From the IMG/VR virus record IMGVR_UViG_3300025121_000886, positions 29,151 through 93,150 of that record: a DNA stretch of 64,000 nucleotides; one strand, written 5' to 3'. The notes beneath the pieces were generated by a model that did not search any database, had not been told where the DNA came from, and saw only the letters and a program-made list of their open reading frames with translations. This document shows, one piece after another, positions 20,648 through 54,210 of this stretch (positions are counted from its first letter, which is position 1; each line of letters opens with the position of its first letter). Made by a program: the position numbers and the translations under genes. This DNA comes from a virus.

Positions 20648-20720
20648 TGCGGGGTGGACCAGCTGGTAGGTCAGAAGACTCATAATCTTCGTGTCGAGGG
20701 TTCGACTCCCTCCCCCGCAA
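20648..20720 (+). tRNA. tRNA-Met (anticodon CAT), CCA not encoded
   Basis: Full cloverleaf: acceptor TGCGGGG/CCCCGCA, D stem GACC/GGTC, anticodon stem GAAGA/TCTTC with loop CTCATAA, T arm GAGGG-TTCGACT-CCCTC. Confidence 0.95.
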
Positions 20721-20820
20721 CTAACAATAATTCTTCCTATTAATCTCATTTTTTTTATATCTGTAAAATATCTACATCAAATCTTTAATTTTCATCAACA
20801 AACAATTCAAAATAATAGGT

Positions 20821-28915: not shown

Positions 28916-29557
28916 ATGAGTTTACAACAATTAACAATAGACAACCTCGGAACAAAAACAGTTGAATTGGGCGGGAAGACAATAACAGGAGGGGGAAGCA
29001 GCACGATTGACAGACAATGGCTTTCTCTTACTGATTGTAAAGGAAATTATCCTGATCTGGCTACTCAAATATCTGGTCTTATCACATCGGGAGAAATTAG
29101 AGTGACTTTAGAAGGTTTAACTTTAACCGCTGCAAACCTCCTTGTGTTAAAAGATATGGAGTCTACCATTATCAATTTCACCTCAGATTATGTAGAACAT
29201 GCGGCTCTTGCAGCCGATGTATCCTTAAATTCTATTTCTTTTCCATATGCCATGTATCTGATAGGATTTAAAGCCTTGTCTATAAATGGTGTTGATACCG
29301 CTGTAGCAGATTATAAACAATTCGATATTATGCAAACAACCGGAGGGGCTACAGCGACGATATTTACAGCCACCACAGAAGCGACAACCACAACTTATGG
29401 TATGGGAACATTAACTGCAAATACAGTTATAACCAAAACTATATCAACACAAGTTATTACTGTGGCTGGATCAGTATTAAGATTTTTAGTTGGTGATGTA
29501 GGTGTTACTGGTAAACAATTCAATGGAATTTTAATTGCCCAATTTATAAGAGCTTAA
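28916..29557 (+). CDS. Putative virion structural protein (paralog family A)
   Basis: Thr-rich beta protein; shares R.W.SL.D..GNYPDL with 29578. Confidence 0.6.
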   Translation: MSLQQLTIDNLGTKTVELGGKTITGGGSSTIDRQWLSLTDCKGNYPDLATQISGLITSGEIRVTLEGLTLTAANLLVLKDMESTIINFTSDYVEHAALAADVSLNSISFPYAMYLIGFKALSINGVDTAVADYKQFDIMQTTGGATATIFTATTEATTTTYGMGTLTANTVITKTISTQVITVAGSVLRFLVGDVGVTGKQFNGILIAQFIRA

Positions 29558-38779: not shown

Positions 38780-39124
38780 ATGTATCAAAGATTAGAAATC
38801 AATCAAAAGGTGTTTCTCCAAAAAATACCAGAGACCATAAAGGAATTCAAGAAAGAAGCACCCTTAGAAAATGGCGTAATAACAGAGGTGAATAATATTT
38901 ATTTTAAGGTCAACGATCGGTATAGATTTTTCACAGAAACACATAAACAGGTGAAAAAAGCATATCATAAACCTTACAAAGTGTATTTCTCAGAAGTTGA
39001 ATACAGAGAAGATGCTAAAAGAAAATCTCTGCTAAATGAATTTCTAGAAAAAATCGACCGTCTTCTAGAAAATGATTCTCTGACAATTGAGCAGATAAAA
39101 AATTTGATTAGAGCGATAGCCTAA
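38780..39124 (+). CDS. Hypothetical protein
   Basis: 114-aa ORF. Confidence 0.6.
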   Translation: MYQRLEINQKVFLQKIPETIKEFKKEAPLENGVITEVNNIYFKVNDRYRFFTETHKQVKKAYHKPYKVYFSEVEYREDAKRKSLLNEFLEKIDRLLENDSLTIEQIKNLIRAIA

Positions 39125-39530: not shown

Positions 39531-41231
39531 ATGTTAGGAGAATTTGATCCTATCCTACAAGAAGCTCTAGGAAAAGAATATTGGAGGGTTTATCACCCCT
39601 TTTATAAAGATAAAAAAAATAAACCACCCGAGTATGATGAAGGTCTTGTACTTCCAATCGATTACTTCACAAAAATATTAGGTGAACACCATATAGAACA
39701 CAAAGGATTACGCGTTTTAGAACTTGGTTGTGCTACTGGTATATCAGTCAATATTATGAGAAAAACTGGGATAAATGCTTTCGGTATCGAAATTTCTAAT
39801 TATATTCTCAATCAAGATCAATTAATCCCACCTGAAGTGAAACCATATATCTATCATATGGATATCAGAAATCTTGATATTTTTCCGGATAAAGCTTTCG
39901 ATTTATGCTGGAGCAATTCTATTGTACACATCCCACCTGAAAACATTCAAAAACATTTAACAGACATATCAAGAATATCTGAATATTTCTTTGTACATAC
40001 AATTTGTGAGGAAGATCCTTTCGGACGCTATCTATTATCCTGTGAAAATGAAAAGAGAGAGAGAATGATCTGGCATGGATTAAAATCTTGGCCTTGGTGG
40101 AAATATCAATTTGCTAAGGCTGGTTGGTGCCATCTAGGAGTAACATTTCCCCCTTATTGGAGTGGTTGGAATTTATTCTGTAACACAGCCTTTGAGAAGA
40201 GGTATATAAAGGGAGCAAATGAACTTCTTCTAAACGAAACAATAAAAGAAAACTCAGAGAGTAAGTATCCAAGACAAGGAGATATACTCTCTTTATTCAT
40301 CGGTGAAGAATCCCTGAGAATAAAAGGAGCTAATTCTATTGATTTTTCCTCATCTTTTGCCAATGGTCTAAAACCACTCTATGATCGATATGTTTATAGA
40401 CCTAAAAAATATATCTGGGGTGACAAAACTGTTATGATCCTAGATAATGAAATGGGGGATAATTATATAGATGAATTGGCAGAACTGACAAAAATTCATG
40501 GTAATATATTAGGTGTAACCCCAAATATAGCAAAAAAACTTCAAAAGATAGATAATTTTTATAGATATACCTTAAGAGAACCCTTATTTTCTGTAAAGAA
40601 TATCTTAGCCTTGAGAAGTCAAAGATATTATGAAATCAGAGCAGGAAAGAAACTATATGAAAATAGATTGATGTATAAAAATATCTTTTCTGAAGACCTC
40701 GATATCCCTAAAATTCTAGAATTTATCTACAAAAGCTGGGAGATCATTTTGGAGAAAGATGTTTCTTATAACGTACGTATTAACATAGCTGATTATACTC
40801 CCTGGTATAAATATCTCTATAATAGCCTAAAATTTGTGGATAAAAATGATTTATTAAACACAATACCCACATTTAAGATATTAGAAAAATATGTAGACAA
40901 CCCCGAATGTATTATTTTAGACCCCTCTATGATACATGGGGAAGTTATTTATGATAAAGACAACATTGTTGCTCTATGGTTAACATACAGGGCAACCCCC
41001 AAAGTTTCTATGCAAGCAATCAGATTTTCTGATCTTACCTATAAATTTTTATCCGATTACATAATCTATAGATCTGCATTAAATCAACCAGATGAAGTCG
41101 AGTTCATAAATGATATGGGGGTCACAAAAGAAGAAAAATTATTTGATTTTAAAAATCGATATGCTGAGATGTATACAAAAAATATAATACTTCAATACAG
41201 ACATCGAAGAAAAGGAGAAAATAAAGAATGA
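39531..41231 (+). CDS. Class I SAM methyltransferase fused to DUF2156 (aa-tRNA-dependent transferase-like) domain, copy 1
   Basis: VLELGCATG...GIEIS...FPDKAFDL; C-term EPLFSVKNILALRSQRYYEIR...VEFINDMG...LFDFKNRY. Confidence 0.75.
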   Translation: MLGEFDPILQEALGKEYWRVYHPFYKDKKNKPPEYDEGLVLPIDYFTKILGEHHIEHKGLRVLELGCATGISVNIMRKTGINAFGIEISNYILNQDQLIPPEVKPYIYHMDIRNLDIFPDKAFDLCWSNSIVHIPPENIQKHLTDISRISEYFFVHTICEEDPFGRYLLSCENEKRERMIWHGLKSWPWWKYQFAKAGWCHLGVTFPPYWSGWNLFCNTAFEKRYIKGANELLLNETIKENSESKYPRQGDILSLFIGEESLRIKGANSIDFSSSFANGLKPLYDRYVYRPKKYIWGDKTVMILDNEMGDNYIDELAELTKIHGNILGVTPNIAKKLQKIDNFYRYTLREPLFSVKNILALRSQRYYEIRAGKKLYENRLMYKNIFSEDLDIPKILEFIYKSWEIILEKDVSYNVRINIADYTPWYKYLYNSLKFVDKNDLLNTIPTFKILEKYVDNPECIILDPSMIHGEVIYDKDNIVALWLTYRATPKVSMQAIRFSDLTYKFLSDYIIYRSALNQPDEVEFINDMGVTKEEKLFDFKNRYAEMYTKNIILQYRHRRKGENKE

Positions 41232-42850
41232 TAGGTGAATTTGACGAAAAAACACAATCCGCTTTTAATTCATACTATTTTGACAATTATTCTAAAGAAG
41301 GATATGGGGGAGAACGATCGGTTTTAAATATAGAAAACTTTTTATTAGTCCTTAAACAAGCAAAAATAATAATACCCGATAGAAAAAAGTTTAGAATATT
41401 AGAATTGGGTTGTGCTGATGGCAGAACAGTAAAAGAGTTAAGAGATTTAGGCTTTGATGCTTACGGTATTGAAATAAGTCAACATATGCTAAAAAAGGTT
41501 GAGCCTGAAATAAAAAAGTATATTTACTTTATGGATATCAGAAATCTAGAAATATTTAAAGATGATTCTTTCGATCTGGTGTATAGCAACAGTCTAATGT
41601 ATCTTAATCCAGAGGAACTTGATAATCATCTGGATGAACTTCATAGAATAAGCAAATACATTTTTGCACATATTCTATGCAAGGAAGATGCTTTTGTAAA
41701 ATATTTAGAGAAAGAAGATTCAGAAAAACTGTATTCTTATATCTCAAACTATAAAGAATTTCCAGAGATGGAATTCCTTTTTGCTACACATGGGTGGGAG
41801 TATGAAACACATATAATGCCAGAAGGATGGTCCGGATGGAATCTTTTTTGTAAAAATAGTTATGGAAAAGGGATGAGTAGATTAAAAACATATCTAGCTT
41901 CATCTGGAATATCTGAATTTACCGTGTTTGCCAGAGATTCTTTACAAAAAAGAAAAAAATCTGGGATAGAAACTTCCAGAAATATAACAGCTGGTCTCTG
42001 CATGAATAGAGCATTACAGTTTTGTAGATATCAATATCAATTTTTCATCCTAGATCAAGGATTTCATCCTCTTGTAACTGATCCTAATCAAATTACAGAA
42101 GGGGCTAAAGAATATTTAAAAAATTTAGATATAACTTCAATTTATGGAATTCCTGAAAAATTTGTAGATATTTTCACAGAATGTGGTTATAGAATAATTA
42201 ATGAAATGAAAGACCCTCTGTTTTCAATATCCAAGATATTAGAGGCATCTGGAAATAAATATCAAGAGATAAGAACCGCAAGAAAATTATATGAAGATGT
42301 CAACCCCCCTACACATAGCACAAAGCACATAAATCAGCTAAACTTCAGAAGTTTTTTTAGAGATAATGAAAAAGGCTATCTTGAATTACAAGATTTTGTA
42401 AAAAGACAAATAATAGAAATATCTAAGAAGCCAGATTTTACTATATTTTCTCTAAGAATATTGTCTAATGTATATTTAACTTATAAAAAGATATTGGAAG
42501 ATTTATATCACGAAATAAATTGTCCAGATACCTATAATTTACACGAATCTTGTATATTTGATACAAGCTGTGTAAATGGAGAGATTACCACAGATTCTGA
42601 TAAAATAATAGGATTTTGGTTAACCGCTCAAATGAATTCTGATACAGCCCTTCAAATATTTAGATTAGCAGATAGGTATTATACTTATTTAGCTGATTAT
42701 CTGGTTTATAGATCAGCCTGGGGACAGTTAAGGGATGTAGAATATATGAATGACATTGGTTTATTAGAAGAAGAACAACAAAACTTAAATATTTTTAAAG
42801 AAAGATATAAAGAGAAAGAAGTCATTTGCTTCAAAGCGGTAAAAATCTGA
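41228..42850 (+). CDS. Class I SAM methyltransferase fused to DUF2156-like domain, copy 2
   Basis: ILELGCADG...GIEIS...FKDDSFDL; C-term DPLFSISKILEASGNKYQEIR...MNSDTALQIFRLAD...VEYMNDIG; ATGA coupling to copy 1. Confidence 0.75.
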   Translation: MIGEFDEKTQSAFNSYYFDNYSKEGYGGERSVLNIENFLLVLKQAKIIIPDRKKFRILELGCADGRTVKELRDLGFDAYGIEISQHMLKKVEPEIKKYIYFMDIRNLEIFKDDSFDLVYSNSLMYLNPEELDNHLDELHRISKYIFAHILCKEDAFVKYLEKEDSEKLYSYISNYKEFPEMEFLFATHGWEYETHIMPEGWSGWNLFCKNSYGKGMSRLKTYLASSGISEFTVFARDSLQKRKKSGIETSRNITAGLCMNRALQFCRYQYQFFILDQGFHPLVTDPNQITEGAKEYLKNLDITSIYGIPEKFVDIFTECGYRIINEMKDPLFSISKILEASGNKYQEIRTARKLYEDVNPPTHSTKHINQLNFRSFFRDNEKGYLELQDFVKRQIIEISKKPDFTIFSLRILSNVYLTYKKILEDLYHEINCPDTYNLHESCIFDTSCVNGEITTDSDKIIGFWLTAQMNSDTALQIFRLADRYYTYLADYLVYRSAWGQLRDVEYMNDIGLLEEEQQNLNIFKERYKEKEVICFKAVKI

Positions 42851-42853
42851 TAT

Positions 42854-43393
42854 TTAGATGAAACCCAACCAAGAAACACTCGTTTTATTTTGATCATATA
42901 ATATTTCTAAAATATGAGTATCTTCTTCCCCACATTGTTCACACAAAAACTCGATATTAATACAATCATCTCCAGCACACTCTTTTGGTTCAAACCTTGA
43001 GGTTAGCACACCCCCACGATTAAAAATAGAGACCGTTCCTGGACCAGCCTCTTTATCCCTGAAGAATGATTTAACTGATTTCTGAGTTAAATTTATGCCT
43101 CCACATCGAGGACATAATAAAGCATCACCTTTCAACTGTATTGATTTTGATACGGGTATTAGCATCTTTTTTTCAAACCAACCATTTTTCAAAATAACCC
43201 ATTTCCCACCTTTATAATCAACACGCTTGTCTATTACTGCTCTTTCTTGATCTTCATTCATGACTTTTTCAGGACATTCTGTGGGCAAAGAACTTTCTGC
43301 TCCCCCACAAACGGTACAGTGTTTTAACCCACCATCACAAATAAAACAAGAATCAAGTTGACAACCAATGTGTTCTTCAAAAATATGTTCCAT
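42854..43393 (-). CDS. Hypothetical multi-zinc-finger protein
   Basis: CFICDGGLKHCTVCGGAE, CPRC, CEQC. Confidence 0.65.
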   Translation of the reverse strand: MEHIFEEHIGCQLDSCFICDGGLKHCTVCGGAESSLPTECPEKVMNEDQERAVIDKRVDYKGGKWVILKNGWFEKKMLIPVSKSIQLKGDALLCPRCGGINLTQKSVKSFFRDKEAGPGTVSIFNRGGVLTSRFEPKECAGDDCINIEFLCEQCGEEDTHILEILYDQNKTSVSWLGFI

Positions 43394-43422: not shown

Positions 43423-43755
43423 TTAAAACCATTGCCCCCACCTGAACCAGCCGTCCTTCATATCCCCCCACCATCGCTCTATATTATCTTCATCCATACG
43501 ATGGGATCTATCTTTTATTGCCTCTAAACATAACTCCCAAACCACCTTGTTCATCAATCCACATGCTCCTTTACCATAAAACTTTTTTCTTAAATATCCT
43601 TTACTCTCCAAAACTTTTAGGTAATCAACAACACCTGTAATAGATATTTTAAAATGTTCTTTTATTTCTCGATAAATTGGGGCTATATTCTTTTCCTCTA
43701 TTGTTTTTATTATAAAGTCAAGAACAGCCCGCTGATGATCCGTTAAAGGTTTCAC
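43423..43755 (-). CDS. LexA-type winged-HTH DNA-binding domain protein lacking the peptidase domain
   Basis: LTDHQRAVLDFI...P.YREI..HF.IS...V..YLKVLESKGYL matches the LexA N-domain; 110 aa only. Confidence 0.8.
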   Translation of the reverse strand: MKPLTDHQRAVLDFIIKTIEEKNIAPIYREIKEHFKISITGVVDYLKVLESKGYLRKKFYGKGACGLMNKVVWELCLEAIKDRSHRMDEDNIERWWGDMKDGWFRWGQWF

Positions 43756-44228: not shown

Positions 44229-47200
44229 GTGAAATTTAACCCAAATTTAGAAGCTTACATAAAATCTATATCTATAAAATTTTCTCGAAAAGAAACAAGT
44301 GAAATGGGCTACCGCTCTGATTTTGAAGTTTTAATTAAAAATATTTTAGAACCGATCATAAATAACCTCAAAATAGATCATGATGCCAAGGCTCAAGAAG
44401 GAAACAAGCCAGACTTTATCCTTTCAGAGGGTGATTTACCAATTTTATACATAGAAACAAAAAATATAGGGGTATCTTTAGATAAATCAGAAAAATCTAA
44501 GCAATTAAATCGATATTATAATTATACAAACCTGATTCTAACCGATTATATCGAATTCAGATTTTATAGAAATGGATATCAATATAACAAACCAATAAAA
44601 ATTGCTCACTATGATATAAAAAACCGAACCTTGCTACCAATAGCAGAAAACTTTAAAGATGTCATAGATACAATAATAAACATGGCAAAATCCTATAAAG
44701 AACCTATTAGATCAAGCAAACGTCTTGCCGAAATAATGGGAGGAAAAGCAAAAAGAATCCGGGATGAAATAAAAAGCTATGTTTTTGAAGAAACAAAAAA
44801 AAATGAAAACATCTTAAAATTATACAAAATAATAAAAGATCAACTTGTTTCAAATTTAACCATAGATTCATTTGCTGATATGTATGCACAGACCATTGTC
44901 TATGGCTTATTTATAGCGAAGTTTAATAATGATATAAAAAATAGTTTTAATAGACAGATAGCCAGAGACCTAATTCCAGAATCAAACTCTTTATTAAGAC
45001 ACTTTTTTGATCATATTACAGGTGCTGATTTTGATAAAAGATTAGAGTATATTGTTAATGAATTATGTGATTTGTTTTCATGTACCGACATAAAAAAAAT
45101 AATGATGGAAGATTACTCTAAAGATGACTTTGACTGTGATCCTATAATACACTTTTATGAAAACTTTCTGCAAGAATATGATATTAATATCAAAAAAAAG
45201 TTTGGAGCATTTTATACACCTTCCCCAATAGTCAATTTTATTGTTAAATCTGTTGATTATCTTTTACAGAATGAGTTTGATATTAAATTAGGTATAGCGA
45301 GTACATTAAAACTCGAAAATGGAGACCACCGAGTTCAAATATTAGATCCTTCTGTAGGTACAGGAACTTTTCTTGACAAAGTTATTTCAATTATTCATGA
45401 AAAGCTATGTAAATCAAGTCAAGGAGGAAGATGGACAAAATATGTTAATGATAATGTTCTCCCACGTATACACGGCTTTGAAATTATGATGACTCCTTAT
45501 ATAATTGCACATTTAAAATTAAGAATGACTTTATACCAAACAAAATGTGAAACCATAGACAATAAAATTAATATTTATTTGACAAACTCTTTAGATGAAA
45601 AAGTTTTACAAAAAGAATTATTTTCCGATTTCGGTTTTTTGGGAAGTATTGCAATGGAATCAAAAGAAGCCGCAGTAATAAAGAATGAGAAACCAATCAT
45701 GGTTGTTATTGGAAACCCACCGTATAGTGTAAGTTCTTCAAATAAAGGTAAATGGATACAGAATTTAATCAAGGACTATAAGAAAGACCTTGGTGAACGA
45801 AAGATAAACCTTGATGATGACTATATCAAATTCATTCGCTTCGCCGAACATTTCATAGAAAAAAACAACGGTGGTATCGTGGCGATGATAACTAATAATT
45901 CATTTATAGACGGTATTACCCATCGCCAAATGAGGAAACATCTCCTTGACACATTTGATGATATTTACATCTTTGATCTTCACGGCAGTTCAAAGAAAAA
46001 AGAAAAAGCGCCTGATGGGGGGAAGGATGAGAATGTATTTGATATTCAACAAGGAGTGTCGATTTCTATATTTATACGCAGAGTAGGAGAAAAGAAAGGT
46101 CTCGCCATTGTTCATCATACTGAGTTATACGGCAAGAGGGCGGATAAATTTCATATGCTCAACGAAAGCGATATACAGACAGTTAAGTGGAAGAATCTTG
46201 ATTACTCCGAACCATATTATTTCTTTGTGCCGAAAGATTTTGGGTTGGAAGAGGAATACGGAAAGGGATTTAAGATTGATGAGTTGTTTAGAGTCTCGAA
46301 TTCCGGTGTAAAGACAGACCGGGACACGTTGTTTATTGATATGGATAAGAGTGTATTGGAAAAGCGGATTCAAAAACTTCTTTCAGAAGATTATGATGAG
46401 AATTTCAAACAAGAATTTCGTGTCTTCAATTCGGGAAGTTATAAATTAACGGAAAAAGTGAAGGGGAAATCGTTTGATGAGAATTATGTACAGCCTGTCC
46501 AATATAGACCATTCGATTATCAGTGGATTTATTATGATCCTTCTTTGGTCAGTCGTCCTGCAAATAAAGTAATGTCGCATATTGTCGGAAAAGAAAATAT
46601 GGCCATTGTTACTGCTCGTCAATTTGGTGGTGGCTCACATTTTATCTGTCTTATCACAAAAACTGTATCTGAGATTAGTTCTCAACCTTATGCCCCATAT
46701 ACCCTTTTTCCTATTTATCTCTACTCCAAAGACGGCTCGTGTGTACCAAATATCAAAAAAGAAATTGTCGATGAGATTGAAAATATTGTCGGTAAAGTAT
46801 CTCCTGAAAATATCTTCGATTATATTTACGCCGTTCTCCACTCCCCCAGTTATCGAGAAAAATATAAGGAATTTCTGAAAATTGATTTTCCACGGGTATC
46901 ATATCCGAAAGACGCTGAAAGTTTTAAAGAGCTTATCGCCTTTGGTGCTGAATTACGTTCACTCCACCTCCTTGAATCCCCAAAGGTAAACCAATTCATC
47001 ACTACGTATCCCATTGAAGGCTCAGATACCATTGAAAAATTAGCTTACAAAGACGGCAATGTATTTATTAACAAAGATCAGTACTTTGGCAACGTTCCAG
47101 AGATTGCATGGAATTTTTACATTGGAGGCTATCAACCAGCACAAAAATGGTTAAAAGACCGAAAAGAACGAGTCCTCAATAATGAAGATATTGAACATTA

Positions 47201-47276
47201 TCAGAAAATCATTGTAGCACTAACAGAAACGGATAGAATCATGAAGAAAATAGATCAAGCATTTATCTGTCCATAA
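44229..47276 (+). CDS. Single-chain type IIG/ISP-like restriction-modification enzyme (nuclease + N6-adenine MTase + TRD)
   Basis: PD-(D/E)xK KPDF...IETK; GAFYTP; LDPSVGTGTF; GNPPY; C-terminal IGGYQ..QKWLKDRK. Confidence 0.88.
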   Translation: MKFNPNLEAYIKSISIKFSRKETSEMGYRSDFEVLIKNILEPIINNLKIDHDAKAQEGNKPDFILSEGDLPILYIETKNIGVSLDKSEKSKQLNRYYNYTNLILTDYIEFRFYRNGYQYNKPIKIAHYDIKNRTLLPIAENFKDVIDTIINMAKSYKEPIRSSKRLAEIMGGKAKRIRDEIKSYVFEETKKNENILKLYKIIKDQLVSNLTIDSFADMYAQTIVYGLFIAKFNNDIKNSFNRQIARDLIPESNSLLRHFFDHITGADFDKRLEYIVNELCDLFSCTDIKKIMMEDYSKDDFDCDPIIHFYENFLQEYDINIKKKFGAFYTPSPIVNFIVKSVDYLLQNEFDIKLGIASTLKLENGDHRVQILDPSVGTGTFLDKVISIIHEKLCKSSQGGRWTKYVNDNVLPRIHGFEIMMTPYIIAHLKLRMTLYQTKCETIDNKINIYLTNSLDEKVLQKELFSDFGFLGSIAMESKEAAVIKNEKPIMVVIGNPPYSVSSSNKGKWIQNLIKDYKKDLGERKINLDDDYIKFIRFAEHFIEKNNGGIVAMITNNSFIDGITHRQMRKHLLDTFDDIYIFDLHGSSKKKEKAPDGGKDENVFDIQQGVSISIFIRRVGEKKGLAIVHHTELYGKRADKFHMLNESDIQTVKWKNLDYSEPYYFFVPKDFGLEEEYGKGFKIDELFRVSNSGVKTDRDTLFIDMDKSVLEKRIQKLLSEDYDENFKQEFRVFNSGSYKLTEKVKGKSFDENYVQPVQYRPFDYQWIYYDPSLVSRPANKVMSHIVGKENMAIVTARQFGGGSHFICLITKTVSEISSQPYAPYTLFPIYLYSKDGSCVPNIKKEIVDEIENIVGKVSPENIFDYIYAVLHSPSYREKYKEFLKIDFPRVSYPKDAESFKELIAFGAELRSLHLLESPKVNQFITTYPIEGSDTIEKLAYKDGNVFINKDQYFGNVPEIAWNFYIGGYQPAQKWLKDRKERVLNNEDIEHYQKIIVALTETDRIMKKIDQAFICP

Positions 47277-48788: not shown

Positions 48789-49991
48789 TCAATCAAACAG
48801 TTTTTTCATCGAGGTAATAACAACATTCAATAAATTATTTTTCTTATCCCTAAGCTTTTCTCGGGCTATTCTATTTTCTGCCAACTTTATATAATTTGGA
48901 TTTAACTCTATCCCAATATAATCCTTTCCTTGATCTTTAGCTACAATACCGACCGTCCCACTCCCAAAGAAAGGATCTAAGACAACCCCCGGTCTAAAAC
49001 CGACATCACAGTTACAACAAGCCTCTTCTCTAAAAGGAACATCACATTTTAGGCATACTTTTTCCGGACACCCTGCATCTAAGGGAGATATTATCAATTT
49101 TTTTGGAAAAGTGGCAAAATGCGACCCTCCCTGAAAACTCTCTGTATTTATATCCCACACCGATCTTTTATTTTTACCTTTGGGGTTTGGACGCATATTT
49201 CTATCATGATAAATTTTTTGACCTGTACCTTCATCCCACAAGCTAACACCTTTGGCATTCAAATTATCCCCACCCCATCTATCTAAGGGTTTTGTATATG
49301 GATCAAATTGTTGTTTAAAAAAATAATTTTTATTCTTAGAGAAAAAGAATAGATATTCAAAGTCAACAGTGTACCTATTAGAAACCGGACTGGGTATACA
49401 ATTAGGCTTTCTCCAAATAATAGTATTTCTGAGCAAAAAACCTTTTTTAATCATACCCAATGCAAAAAGAAATGGTATTCCTACTAAAGATTGTGTTCTA
49501 ACAGGAGTCTCATTAACACCACCCCTATAACCTTGTAATTTACCCCAACTCCCCCCATAGGTATCCCCAATGTTTACCCAACAAGTCCCATCATCTCGTA
49601 AAACACGACATACTCCATCAAAAATATCACATAAATTATCAATAAATAAATCAGGGTTTGGCTCATTTCCTAAAGAACCCAGCCAAGCTTTACAGTATAC
49701 ACAAAATCTTCCATGATCGATAAATACCTCATTAATACTCTTTTTTTGATTACCTACAGTCGCACTTGACCCTGAGCTGTTCCCACGCTGTCTCGACATC
49801 ATCTCCCCTCCCCAAACATGCTTACAAGAAACATCCCCACCCCATATTAAAGGTTCTGTCTTGTAATTTCTCAAGCCCCAATAAGGAGGAGACGTGATAC
49901 ACGTATTAATACTATTATCTGGAATGTTTTCTAATACCTCCAGAGAATTTCCTTGATGTATTTTATTTAAAAACTCTTTAATATCTCTCAT
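48789..49991 (-). CDS. Orphan DNA methyltransferase (N4-C/N6-A, beta class)
   Basis: TSPPYWGLR before HFATFP and VLDPFFGSGT. Confidence 0.9.
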   Translation of the reverse strand: MRDIKEFLNKIHQGNSLEVLENIPDNSINTCITSPPYWGLRNYKTEPLIWGGDVSCKHVWGGEMMSRQRGNSSGSSATVGNQKKSINEVFIDHGRFCVYCKAWLGSLGNEPNPDLFIDNLCDIFDGVCRVLRDDGTCWVNIGDTYGGSWGKLQGYRGGVNETPVRTQSLVGIPFLFALGMIKKGFLLRNTIIWRKPNCIPSPVSNRYTVDFEYLFFFSKNKNYFFKQQFDPYTKPLDRWGGDNLNAKGVSLWDEGTGQKIYHDRNMRPNPKGKNKRSVWDINTESFQGGSHFATFPKKLIISPLDAGCPEKVCLKCDVPFREEACCNCDVGFRPGVVLDPFFGSGTVGIVAKDQGKDYIGIELNPNYIKLAENRIAREKLRDKKNNLLNVVITSMKKLFD

Positions 49992-50476
49992 TAAACAACT
50001 TCCACTTTTTCAGACTTTTTCTTTTCGAGCAAGACCAGCGTATGTTTCTCATCTTTGAACTCTTCATCAATCATCTTCTTAATAAATTTCCAATCTCCAC
50101 CAGCTAAACCAGCACCAATCTTAGGATATGCTATACGCTTTCCATGAAAAGTTTCTTTAACTTTCCGTAAACAACTCCTTAACGCTTCATAAGAAACTCT
50201 TCTACCATTGCCACCCTTATAATGAAATTGTGTATAACAATTTACAACCATAAATTTATGGCCATTGCGCTCAACAAGAGCATAAGATATTTTTCCCAAC
50301 TTTTTGGGATCACCCTTTGGGGTCTTTAAATCTGCCAAAAAAGCTTCTTTAAAAGTGTTTTTAATCTCTAACGCTATACCTGCACCCATTGTACAATAGC
50401 AATTACAACCATGTAATATAATATCAAAATCACCATTGGAAGCCATTTCTAACAAGTTTCCTGTGACAACCTCCAT
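49991..50476 (-). CDS. Macro domain protein (ADP-ribose binding/hydrolase)
   Basis: GNLL...HGCNC..TMGAGIA...YTQF...PKIGAGLAGGDW. Confidence 0.9.
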   Translation of the reverse strand: MEVVTGNLLEMASNGDFDIILHGCNCYCTMGAGIALEIKNTFKEAFLADLKTPKGDPKKLGKISYALVERNGHKFMVVNCYTQFHYKGGNGRRVSYEALRSCLRKVKETFHGKRIAYPKIGAGLAGGDWKFIKKMIDEEFKDEKHTLVLLEKKKSEKVEVV

Positions 50477-53136: not shown

Positions 53137-54210
53137 TTAAAGAAAATTTTTGTAGGCTCTGTGAAAGTTATCAAAGTGTGCATAATCACCTGTCAAAAAG
53201 GACAAACATTTTTTTAGGATCAATGCTGCTGTCATCTCAGTTATATTTTGATCTTTTATTGGACAAATTTCAACAATGTCCATTCCAATAATATTTATAC
53301 ATCTATCTCGACCTGTACCTAAATAAAAAAGTCGTTTTAAAATATACATTAATTGACTCCACAATAAACCACCATTTGGAGAAGGTAATCCCACATTTGG
53401 GGCAATACTGGTATGAAGTGCGCTCATATCTATTGAAATATAAACGTCACCTTTTAATTTATTTAAGATATCATCATAACATCGATTTTCAGGCCGTTCT
53501 TGACTTAATAAGCCCAATTTATCATAGGGGATATCTATGATGTCTTCTTCTGAAGATCGTATTATTTTTAGCTCTTCTTCAGATAAATTTCTTTGACCTA
53601 TAAACATCAATTTATAACCAAGCTCATGAACTCTCCTCATAACACAACCGTGTGTGAATGCACTGTTCTTCCCATCATGAAATAAGATATTCTCAGAATC
53701 CTTCAGATTATACCTAGAATCAATGCTCACTACTGTCGTATCTTTTATATTCTTGATTATATTTGACTTCTTAAGTATATTCAAAAAGGTGTATGTGACA
53801 GTATGTTCCCCACCTATTCCTATAAAAAATGGTGTAAAAAATCTTTCTTCTGAATTTCTTGAAATAACCCTATTCTTTGAGGGATTCTTCCACTTCCCAA
53901 ACTTTTCACTCATATCCTTTATTAAATTATTCAAAATAGTTTCAGGATAGTCTGATGAACGGTGCATAAAGCTTCTATCTTCTGAAAAAACTGATTGGTG
54001 CAAAGCCAAGTTCTCAAAGGGGTTTTGACGCGTGATCTCGTCTAAAAGATCAATTTTAAAAGAAGCATTATAAACAGCTAAAGGACCACCTAAAACACCT
54101 CTAGAATCTGAAGTATACTTCTCATAAGGTACTGAAAAAACAATCACATCAGATTCATTTATTGGATTATTTTTCTGCCCAAAAATTGTAAAACCGTGTT
54201 CATAAAACAT
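53137..54210 (-). CDS. Agmatinase/arginase-family (ureohydrolase) homolog with degenerate metal site
   Basis: VPYE, GP, GGEH, HGCVMRR, IG.R, P.VG.P..GGL.W, DIVE..P; DAHxD is DSRYN, DxD is DMS. Confidence 0.8.
   Translation of the reverse strand: MFYEHGFTIFGQKNNPINESDVIVFSVPYEKYTSDSRGVLGGPLAVYNASFKIDLLDEITRQNPFENLALHQSVFSEDRSFMHRSSDYPETILNNLIKDMSEKFGKWKNPSKNRVISRNSEERFFTPFFIGIGGEHTVTYTFLNILKKSNIIKNIKDTTVVSIDSRYNLKDSENILFHDGKNSAFTHGCVMRRVHELGYKLMFIGQRNLSEEELKIIRSSEEDIIDIPYDKLGLLSQERPENRCYDDILNKLKGDVYISIDMSALHTSIAPNVGLPSPNGGLLWSQLMYILKRLFYLGTGRDRCINIIGMDIVEICPIKDQNITEMTAALILKKCLSFLTGDYAHFDNFHRAYKNFL

Follow-up and report, generated by a model that had tools for sequence, protein, structure and literature searches.

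The window analyzed here, a stretch of 64,000 nucleotides that forms the last 64 kb of the 93-kb IMG/VR record IMGVR_UViG_3300025121_000886 (positions 29,151 to 93,150), comes from an uncultured jumbo-type groundwater phage. It encodes two adjacent proteins, denoted ORF1 and ORF2 (from open reading frame), each of which combines an N-terminal S-adenosylmethionine (SAM)-dependent methyltransferase with a large C-terminal domain that is predicted to adopt a tandem GNAT fold similar to that of DUF2156 (PF09924), the synthase domain of MprF. The pair is organized as follows (positions are those of the window unless stated otherwise; aa, amino acids):

39531..41231, + strand: ORF1, 566 aa, class I SAM-dependent methyltransferase followed by an orphan C-terminal domain of ~350 aa
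41228..42850, + strand: ORF2, 540 aa, class I SAM-dependent methyltransferase followed by an orphan C-terminal domain of ~330 aa
41228..41231, + strand: ATGA overlap of 4 nt, the ATG of ORF2 lying within the TGA stop of ORF1 (translational coupling)
40158..40181, + strand: WSGWNLFC octapeptide of ORF1 at the boundary between the methyltransferase and the C-terminal domain (residues 210-217), identical in ORF2
41828..41851, + strand: WSGWNLFC octapeptide of ORF2 (residues 201-208)

An AAGGAG sequence is located 9 nt upstream of the ATG of ORF2. The two proteins are 32% identical over their full length (BLASTP, E-value 1e-75) and have a common N-terminus, M(L/I)GEFD, a tag that is found in no other protein of the window. 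Both are soluble: the highest Kyte-Doolittle mean over 19 residues is 0.89 in ORF1 and 1.24 in ORF2, i.e., there is no membrane segment in either protein, and both carry the methyltransferase at the N-terminus. An earlier interpretation of this DNA made from the letters alone (hereafter, the sequence-only reading) described translationally coupled paralogs that share the WSGWNLFC linker and lack a membrane flippase, and all these features are borne out. The pair is thus a real, intact, co-translated pair of paralogs that is known so far from a single phage lineage.

The methyltransferase cores are readily delineated in both proteins:

39699..40133, + strand: methyltransferase core of ORF1 (residues 57-201), with motif I VLELGCATG, GIEIS, MDIRNL and DLCWSNS
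41378..41662, + strand: methyltransferase core of ORF2 (residues 51-145), with ILELGCADG, GIEIS, MDIRNL and DLVYSNS

Both ORFs score above the Pfam cut-offs for two families of clan CL0063, namely, Methyltransf_11 (PF08241; 1.4e-8 and 35.7 bits for ORF1, 2.3e-11 and 44.6 bits for ORF2, against a cut-off of 21.2) and Methyltransf_25 (PF13649; 5e-8 and 34.0 bits for ORF1, 2.9e-12 and 47.5 bits for ORF2, against a cut-off of 27). SAM motif I, the acidic residue past strand 2 and the Asp of motif III can be read in both sequences, and both proteins match phage methyltransferase PHROGs. The class I methyltransferase with an LELGCAxG motif that had been assigned to each ORF is accordingly present, and judging by the sequence, the identity of the N-terminal half as a class I SAM-dependent methyltransferase is certain. 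A search of NCBIfam gave only sub-threshold generic matches (PmtA, BioC, MetW and the DVU_1556-family methyltransferase). The nearest solved structures to the ORF2 methyltransferase are PDB 1VE3 (PH0226; 9e-7) and 5WP5 (phosphomethylethanolamine N-methyltransferase 2; 4.6e-5), both of which have the same Methyltransf_11/25 core as the phage domain; the similarity is low and limited to the SAM-binding half, so that substrate specificity cannot be transferred from these enzymes to the phage methyltransferase. Motif IV of DNA amino-methyltransferases, (D/N/S)PP(Y/F/W), is absent from both ORFs in a regular expression search (ORF1 contains a non-conserved FPPY), and neither ORF1 nor ORF2 has a Pfam match to N6_Mtase or N6_N4_Mtase. 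By these motif and family criteria, the methyltransferase is of the small-molecule or headgroup-amine type and is no recognizable DNA methylase.

The C-terminal domains are homologous to each other:

40182..41228, + strand: C-terminal domain of ORF1 (residues 218-566), homologous to the C-terminal domain of ORF2 and otherwise a sequence orphan
41852..42847, + strand: C-terminal domain of ORF2 (residues 209-540), with a predicted tandem-GNAT, DUF2156-like fold

The blocks conserved in both domains are (E/D)PLFS..IL....Y.EIR...KLYE, GE...D.D.I..WLT, YRSA..Q..VE(F/Y).ND.G and FK.RY; conserved blocks had been quoted in the sequence-only reading, and they are indeed found in both translations. The N-terminal GNAT half of the domain is poorly conserved between the paralogs. 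No relatives of this domain were detected in any database searched. Pfam, PHROG, NCBIfam and PADLOC gave zero matches for the last 330-350 residues, and a PDB sequence search gave none at E ≤ 10. When a two-sequence profile of the domain was run with hmmsearch exhaustively against 1.84 billion representative proteins, only ORF1 and ORF2 were returned, and word-indexed searches with full-length ORF2 or with the domain profile (E ≤ 10) returned the pair itself or nothing. Likewise, no relatives of the domain were found with tblastn in GenBank phages or in plasmids (E ≤ 10), or in scans of IMG/VR and GTDB (185,579 species genomes). At the level of sequence, the C-terminal domain is therefore a true orphan among about 15 billion predicted proteins, and with no relatives of this domain in any of the searches, the pair does not represent a gene fusion common in bacteria; the sequence-only reading had named such a common bacterial gene of known function as a finding that would overturn it.

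The principal evidence on the nature of this domain comes from structure prediction. In the ESM Atlas, residues 215-540 of ORF2 share 181-183 of 256 features with their closest matches (feature score 0.94), and 19 of the 30 nearest clusters, several of them viral, carry PF09924. The Atlas model of ORF2, an ESMFold model of moderate quality (whole-protein predicted local distance difference test, pLDDT, 0.64; predicted template modeling score, pTM, 0.48), aligns with six PF09924 cluster sets and one multi-GNAT acetyltransferase with template modeling (TM) scores of 0.70-0.77 over 274-291 residues. This result is independent of any alignment and is the strongest support for the predicted DUF2156-like fold. 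Furthermore, AlphaFold2 (AF2), when provided with an alignment augmented with family sequences, models the last ~200 residues of the protein as a GNAT fold; only the second GNAT half is resolved in this model, the beginning of the domain (~115 residues) remaining unmodeled. The top structural match of the AF2 model is PDB 2HQY, followed by MprF, Fem and Sba18, and all of these matches are barely separated from generic GNATs. This model is partly circular because family sequences are included in its alignment, which favors 2HQY and the aminoacyl-tRNA transferases; with the two-paralog alignment and no family sequences, the pLDDT of the AF2 model is 32. A search of BFVD yielded weak generic GNAT matches only. 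Taken from the models, the last ~200 residues are likely to adopt a GNAT fold, and the domain as a whole is probably a full tandem GNAT of the DUF2156 type, an assignment that rests on one independent source.

Several observations weigh against this assignment. Neither an hmmscan of the ORFs nor a search of the record in all six frames gives a match to PF09924 at E ≤ 10 (cut-off 27.5 bits). For a direct comparison, a bona fide domain from a Ralstonia megaplasmid (330 bits) was used as the query to collect 120 PF09924 family members, from which a 40-sequence alignment was built; this set samples only the MprF branch, and the phage query profile consists of 2 sequences. Within these bounds, hhalign gives a probability of 0.1% for the phage pair against the 40 family members, the true sequences come only 25th-62nd when ranked together with 400 shuffles by their scores with the family hidden Markov model (HMM), and the HMM-HMM scores (hhalign, global and local) fall within the shuffle distribution. 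In MAFFT alignments, 9 family-invariant columns are matched, compared to 7.8 ± 2.7 in column-shuffled pairs, with 20 of the 45 shuffles scoring as well as the real pair. MAFFT and HMMER do place the DLMR/IFRL, N-x-x-GL and FKxKF/FK.RY motifs where the sequence-only reading had seen them, but these placements are indistinguishable from chance. Because every sequence test against PF09924/DUF2156 is negative, the motif match made by eye is statistically unsupported, and PF09924 membership cannot be claimed from these comparisons. The Atlas result is also not replicated by ORF1, the model of which has a pLDDT of 0.42 and a best TM score of 0.38, with matches at the noise level. The proposal of a DUF2156-like fold thus stands in part: it is backed by the ORF2 Atlas model and the partly circular AF2 model, and it is backed neither by ORF1 nor by the sequence comparisons. 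An alternative reading of the domain as an APH kinase was rejected: the similarity of ORF1 to Atlas clusters combining an APH kinase with a methyltransferase (0.81) is at the noise level, and no HxDxxxxN motif is seen by eye in the C-terminal sequence of ORF2.

The same negative results are what one would expect if the C-terminal domain had a different, possibly new fold, the ORF2 Atlas match being an artefact of the language model and the two proteins being methyltransferases with an uncharacterized C-terminal module. Shuffle-level scores against PF09924, the empty Atlas result for ORF1, the low pLDDT of the AF2 model built from the paralogs only, the failure to model the beginning of the domain even with family sequences and the moderate quality of the ORF2 Atlas model all fit this possibility. 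What makes it unlikely in our assessment is that TM scores of 0.70-0.77 extend over 85-90% of the 326-residue domain and involve many independent PF09924 clusters, an outcome that would be very improbable if the fold were wrong, and that, by the calibration of the Atlas, matches with 183 shared features and a feature score of 0.94 fall in a range where most are true family members.

We consider it no more probable that the domain, with one GNAT unit or two, functions as an N-acyltransferase that depends on acyl-CoA and does not involve tRNA; the pair would then be methyltransferase-acetyltransferases with a protein, a small amine or an antibiotic-like molecule as the substrate. Against this, Pfam Acetyltransf families are not matched even at E ≤ 10, 19 of the 30 feature matches and six of the seven structural rows in the Atlas are PF09924 rather than acetyltransferases, and 2HQY and the aminoacyl-tRNA transferases head both structural rankings, although the alignment favors them.

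Aminoacyl-tRNA transferases of this kind are characterized by a pair of GNAT domains, by a helix of the second domain that is positively charged and accommodates the acceptor stem, and by a catalytic Lys or Arg (PMC6103681, PMC12945691), for example, K305 of FemX and F328/K329 of DhpH-C (PMC12945691). Candidate counterparts of the latter two features can be pointed out in the phage proteins:

40578..40661, + strand: conserved basic block of ORF1, EPLFSVKNILALRSQRYYEIRAGKKLYE (residues 350-377), candidate tRNA-binding helix, inferred from PMC6103681 and PMC12945691
42212..42295, + strand: conserved basic block of ORF2, DPLFSISKILEASGNKYQEIRTARKLYE (residues 329-356), candidate tRNA-binding helix
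41148..41162, + strand: FKNRY of ORF1 (F540-K541), candidate catalytic Phe-Lys dyad by analogy with DhpH-C F328/K329 and FemX K305 (PMC12945691)
42794..42808, + strand: FKERY of ORF2 (F523-K524), candidate catalytic Phe-Lys dyad

The basic block, (E/D)PLFS..IL....Y.EIR...KLYE, and the Phe-Lys dyad are the best-conserved blocks between the paralogs, and in ORF2 the basic block overlaps the best-modeled stretch of the AF2 prediction (10-residue blocks with pLDDT 83-90). The invariant Phe-Lys is located 17-26 residues before the C-terminus and aligns in MAFFT with the FK of the PF09924 family; this dyad and the basic block are short motifs, and overall the alignment is no better than chance. The conserved blocks are consistent with a live transferase site and do not prove it.

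It is quite doubtful that the domain is a catalytically dead tandem GNAT that serves for substrate recognition or dimerization of the paralogs and leaves methylation as the sole chemistry. The poor conservation of the N-terminal GNAT half would be in line with such a role, as would the fact that the catalytic residues named above are candidates only, and fused pseudo-enzyme domains that function as targeting modules are common. Against this, at 32% identity between the paralogs, the strongest conservation falls exactly at the places occupied in aminoacyl-tRNA transferases by the tRNA helix and the catalytic Lys (PMC12945691), and the conservation of both the basic block and the Phe-Lys dyad argues for a retained active site.

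Comparison with known systems places the predicted tandem-GNAT domain at a distance from all of them. The closest structure, 2HQY, is a stand-alone DUF2156 protein of Bacteroides thetaiotaomicron, of unknown function and with no fused methyltransferase; it is about 13-14% identical to the phage domain with no detectable sequence relationship, and only the second GNAT half could be superposed. Unlike the synthase domain of MprF and aminoacyl-phosphatidylglycerol synthases (PF09924; PDB 4V36, 4V34, 6LV0, 5VRV and 7F47), the phage proteins have no flippase or transmembrane domain, fail both the PF09924 HMM and the profile-profile tests, and are fused to a methyltransferase, an architecture that is absent among the 120 PF09924 proteins listed. 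The lack of a membrane segment in both phage proteins excludes a lipid synthase anchored in the manner of MprF, but the acceptor may still be a peripheral lipid or a small amine. FemX/FemA, VlmA, DhpH-C, PacB, Orf11 and Sba18/Sbb17 (PDB 9WQY/9WQW) show no sequence similarity to the pair, and no methyltransferase fusion is mentioned for FemX/FemA and the natural-product aminoacyl-tRNA transferases in a review of such enzymes.

A functional parallel within phages is provided by Mom of phage Mu, which carries out a Gly-tRNA-dependent modification of adenine in DNA (PMC13219725). Like the proposed activity of ORF1 and ORF2, it involves a phage-encoded enzyme of the GNAT superfamily with charged tRNA as the donor (PMC13219725), and this precedent therefore indicates that tRNA-dependent chemistry exists in phages. 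However, Mom is a small single-GNAT dimer without a methyltransferase, and a DNA target for ORF1 and ORF2 is speculative. The domain order of the phage proteins is that of the type B betaine-lipid synthase BTA1, in which an N-terminal BtaB N-methyltransferase is followed by BtaA, a transferase of an amino acid moiety, and the fused methyltransferase methylates the amine installed by the BtaA part (PMC8752610). BtaA is a SAM-dependent 3-amino-3-carboxypropyl transferase and not a GNAT, so that the likeness is one of analogy only, with no homology implied. N-methylation of ornithine lipids is a further precedent (PMC12971839).

As the favored explanation, we tentatively propose that ORF1 and ORF2 are soluble enzymes with two activities, aminoacyl-tRNA-dependent transfer and N-methylation. 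Under this scheme, the C-terminal ~330 residues, the predicted tandem GNAT of the DUF2156/Fem type, would take an aminoacyl group from a charged tRNA, with the basic block holding the acceptor stem and the invariant Phe-Lys polarizing the ester, and would pass it to a soluble acceptor that is not anchored in lipid. The fused methyltransferase would next methylate either this acceptor or the amino group newly added to it. Between them, the paralogs could represent two specificities, for two amino acids or two positions, or else form a heterodimer. Among the conceivable acceptors, we would rank nucleic acid, in particular DNA, first, on account of the use of Gly-tRNA on DNA adenine by Mom, ahead of a small amine or lipid headgroup and then of a Lys-rich protein of 60 aa encoded upstream of the pair. 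The most far-reaching version of this proposal, that amino acids from charged tRNA are attached to phage or host DNA or to the Lys-rich protein and then N-methylated by the same polypeptide, would amount to a methylated aminoacyl mark undescribed on any nucleic acid or protein, and is very unlikely.

The pair ends a + strand block that runs on from the structural genes. The Lys-rich ORF belongs to this part of the genome:

39214..39396, + strand: Lys-rich ORF, 60 aa with 23 Lys (38%), a possible partner or acceptor encoded 134 nt upstream of ORF1

This ORF has no Pfam match, and GGAGG precedes its two in-frame ATGs by 3 and 9 nt. GGAGG alone is rarely a start signal in this DNA (2 of 24 + strand sites), yet Shine-Dalgarno-like sites precede most genes. 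The ORF could encode an ultra-basic protein, a candidate acceptor or a DNA-condensing protein, or it could have arisen from the high A content of the strand (56% A). A 114-aa protein with a Phage_ProQ_C_like domain (PF24203, E-value 4.5e-8) is encoded two genes before the pair (38780-39124, + strand).

Downstream of the pair, there are three convergent small genes. A 179-aa CxxC-rich protein (42854-43393, − strand), with several zinc-ribbon-like motifs and no Pfam match, ends 3 nt from the ORF2 stop, and a 110-aa protein (43423-43755, − strand) contains a LexA DNA-binding domain (E-value 7.6e-12). Further on, the window encodes a 1015-aa Type IIG restriction enzyme-methyltransferase (44229-47276, + strand; PADLOC PDLC03610, 900 bits), with Pfam matches to Type_ISP_C (5e-85), N6_Mtase and Eco57I and an HSDR_N-like N-terminus, an N6_N4 DNA methylase (48789-49991, − strand; 4.3e-37), a macro domain protein (49991-50476, − strand; 1.4e-7) and an arginase-family protein (53137-54210, − strand; 7.3e-31). 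A second N6_N4 methylase is encoded beyond the window (L007:12552-13958, − strand). The nearby DNA methylases belong to transcription units other than that of the pair, and the content of the locus favors none of the candidate acceptors (DNA, the Lys-rich protein, or a small amine or lipid headgroup) over the others. A protein of the Thg1-like tRNA-His guanylyltransferase family (PF04446, 1.5e-27) is encoded outside the window (L007:3185-4033, + strand), and a tRNA-Met(CAU) gene lies within it (20648-20721, + strand); these suggest functions in tRNA repair or supply and show that the phage engages the tRNA biology of its host, with no specific link to the pair. Two very large ORFs, of 1879 aa (L008:2349-7985, + strand) and 1188 aa (L007:6637-10200, + strand), have no Pfam match at E ≤ 0.001.

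The window encodes a terminase, a portal and a major head protein. The terminase (19-2271, + strand) is 30-33% identical to those of the 220-280-kb jumbo phages Lu11, PaBG, NCTB and Dickeya JA29; searches of genomes and of IMG/VR with the terminase revealed no close relatives of the phage, and megablast of 20 kb against phages gave no match. The record, with an estimated CheckV completeness of 30%, is labeled "provirus"; the same proteins are found on contigs of up to 184 kb, and instead of an integrated prophage, the record probably represents part of a phage genome of ~300 kb. The phage DNA is present in groundwater and soil metagenomes from eight studies, with no RNA dataset among those listed. 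The sequencing runs with a lower share of this DNA contain identical low-coverage fragments and thus offer no variation for selection analysis.

Altogether, ORF1 and ORF2 probably represent a new architectural combination of known kinds of enzymes, as far as the models go: a Methyltransf_11/25 methyltransferase and a half that resembles tRNA-dependent transferases. The family assignment has to be taken with caution, resting as it does on the predicted structure of only one of the paralogs, ORF2, and because the pair is an orphan, comparative genomics cannot help here. Two genes for soluble, expressible proteins would make a directly testable construct. The use of charged tRNA as a non-ribosomal donor in phages was proven only recently, for Mu Mom, in 2026, and a phage pair in which a methyltransferase is joined to a transferase that probably depends on tRNA would suggest marks made in two steps, by aminoacylation followed by methylation.

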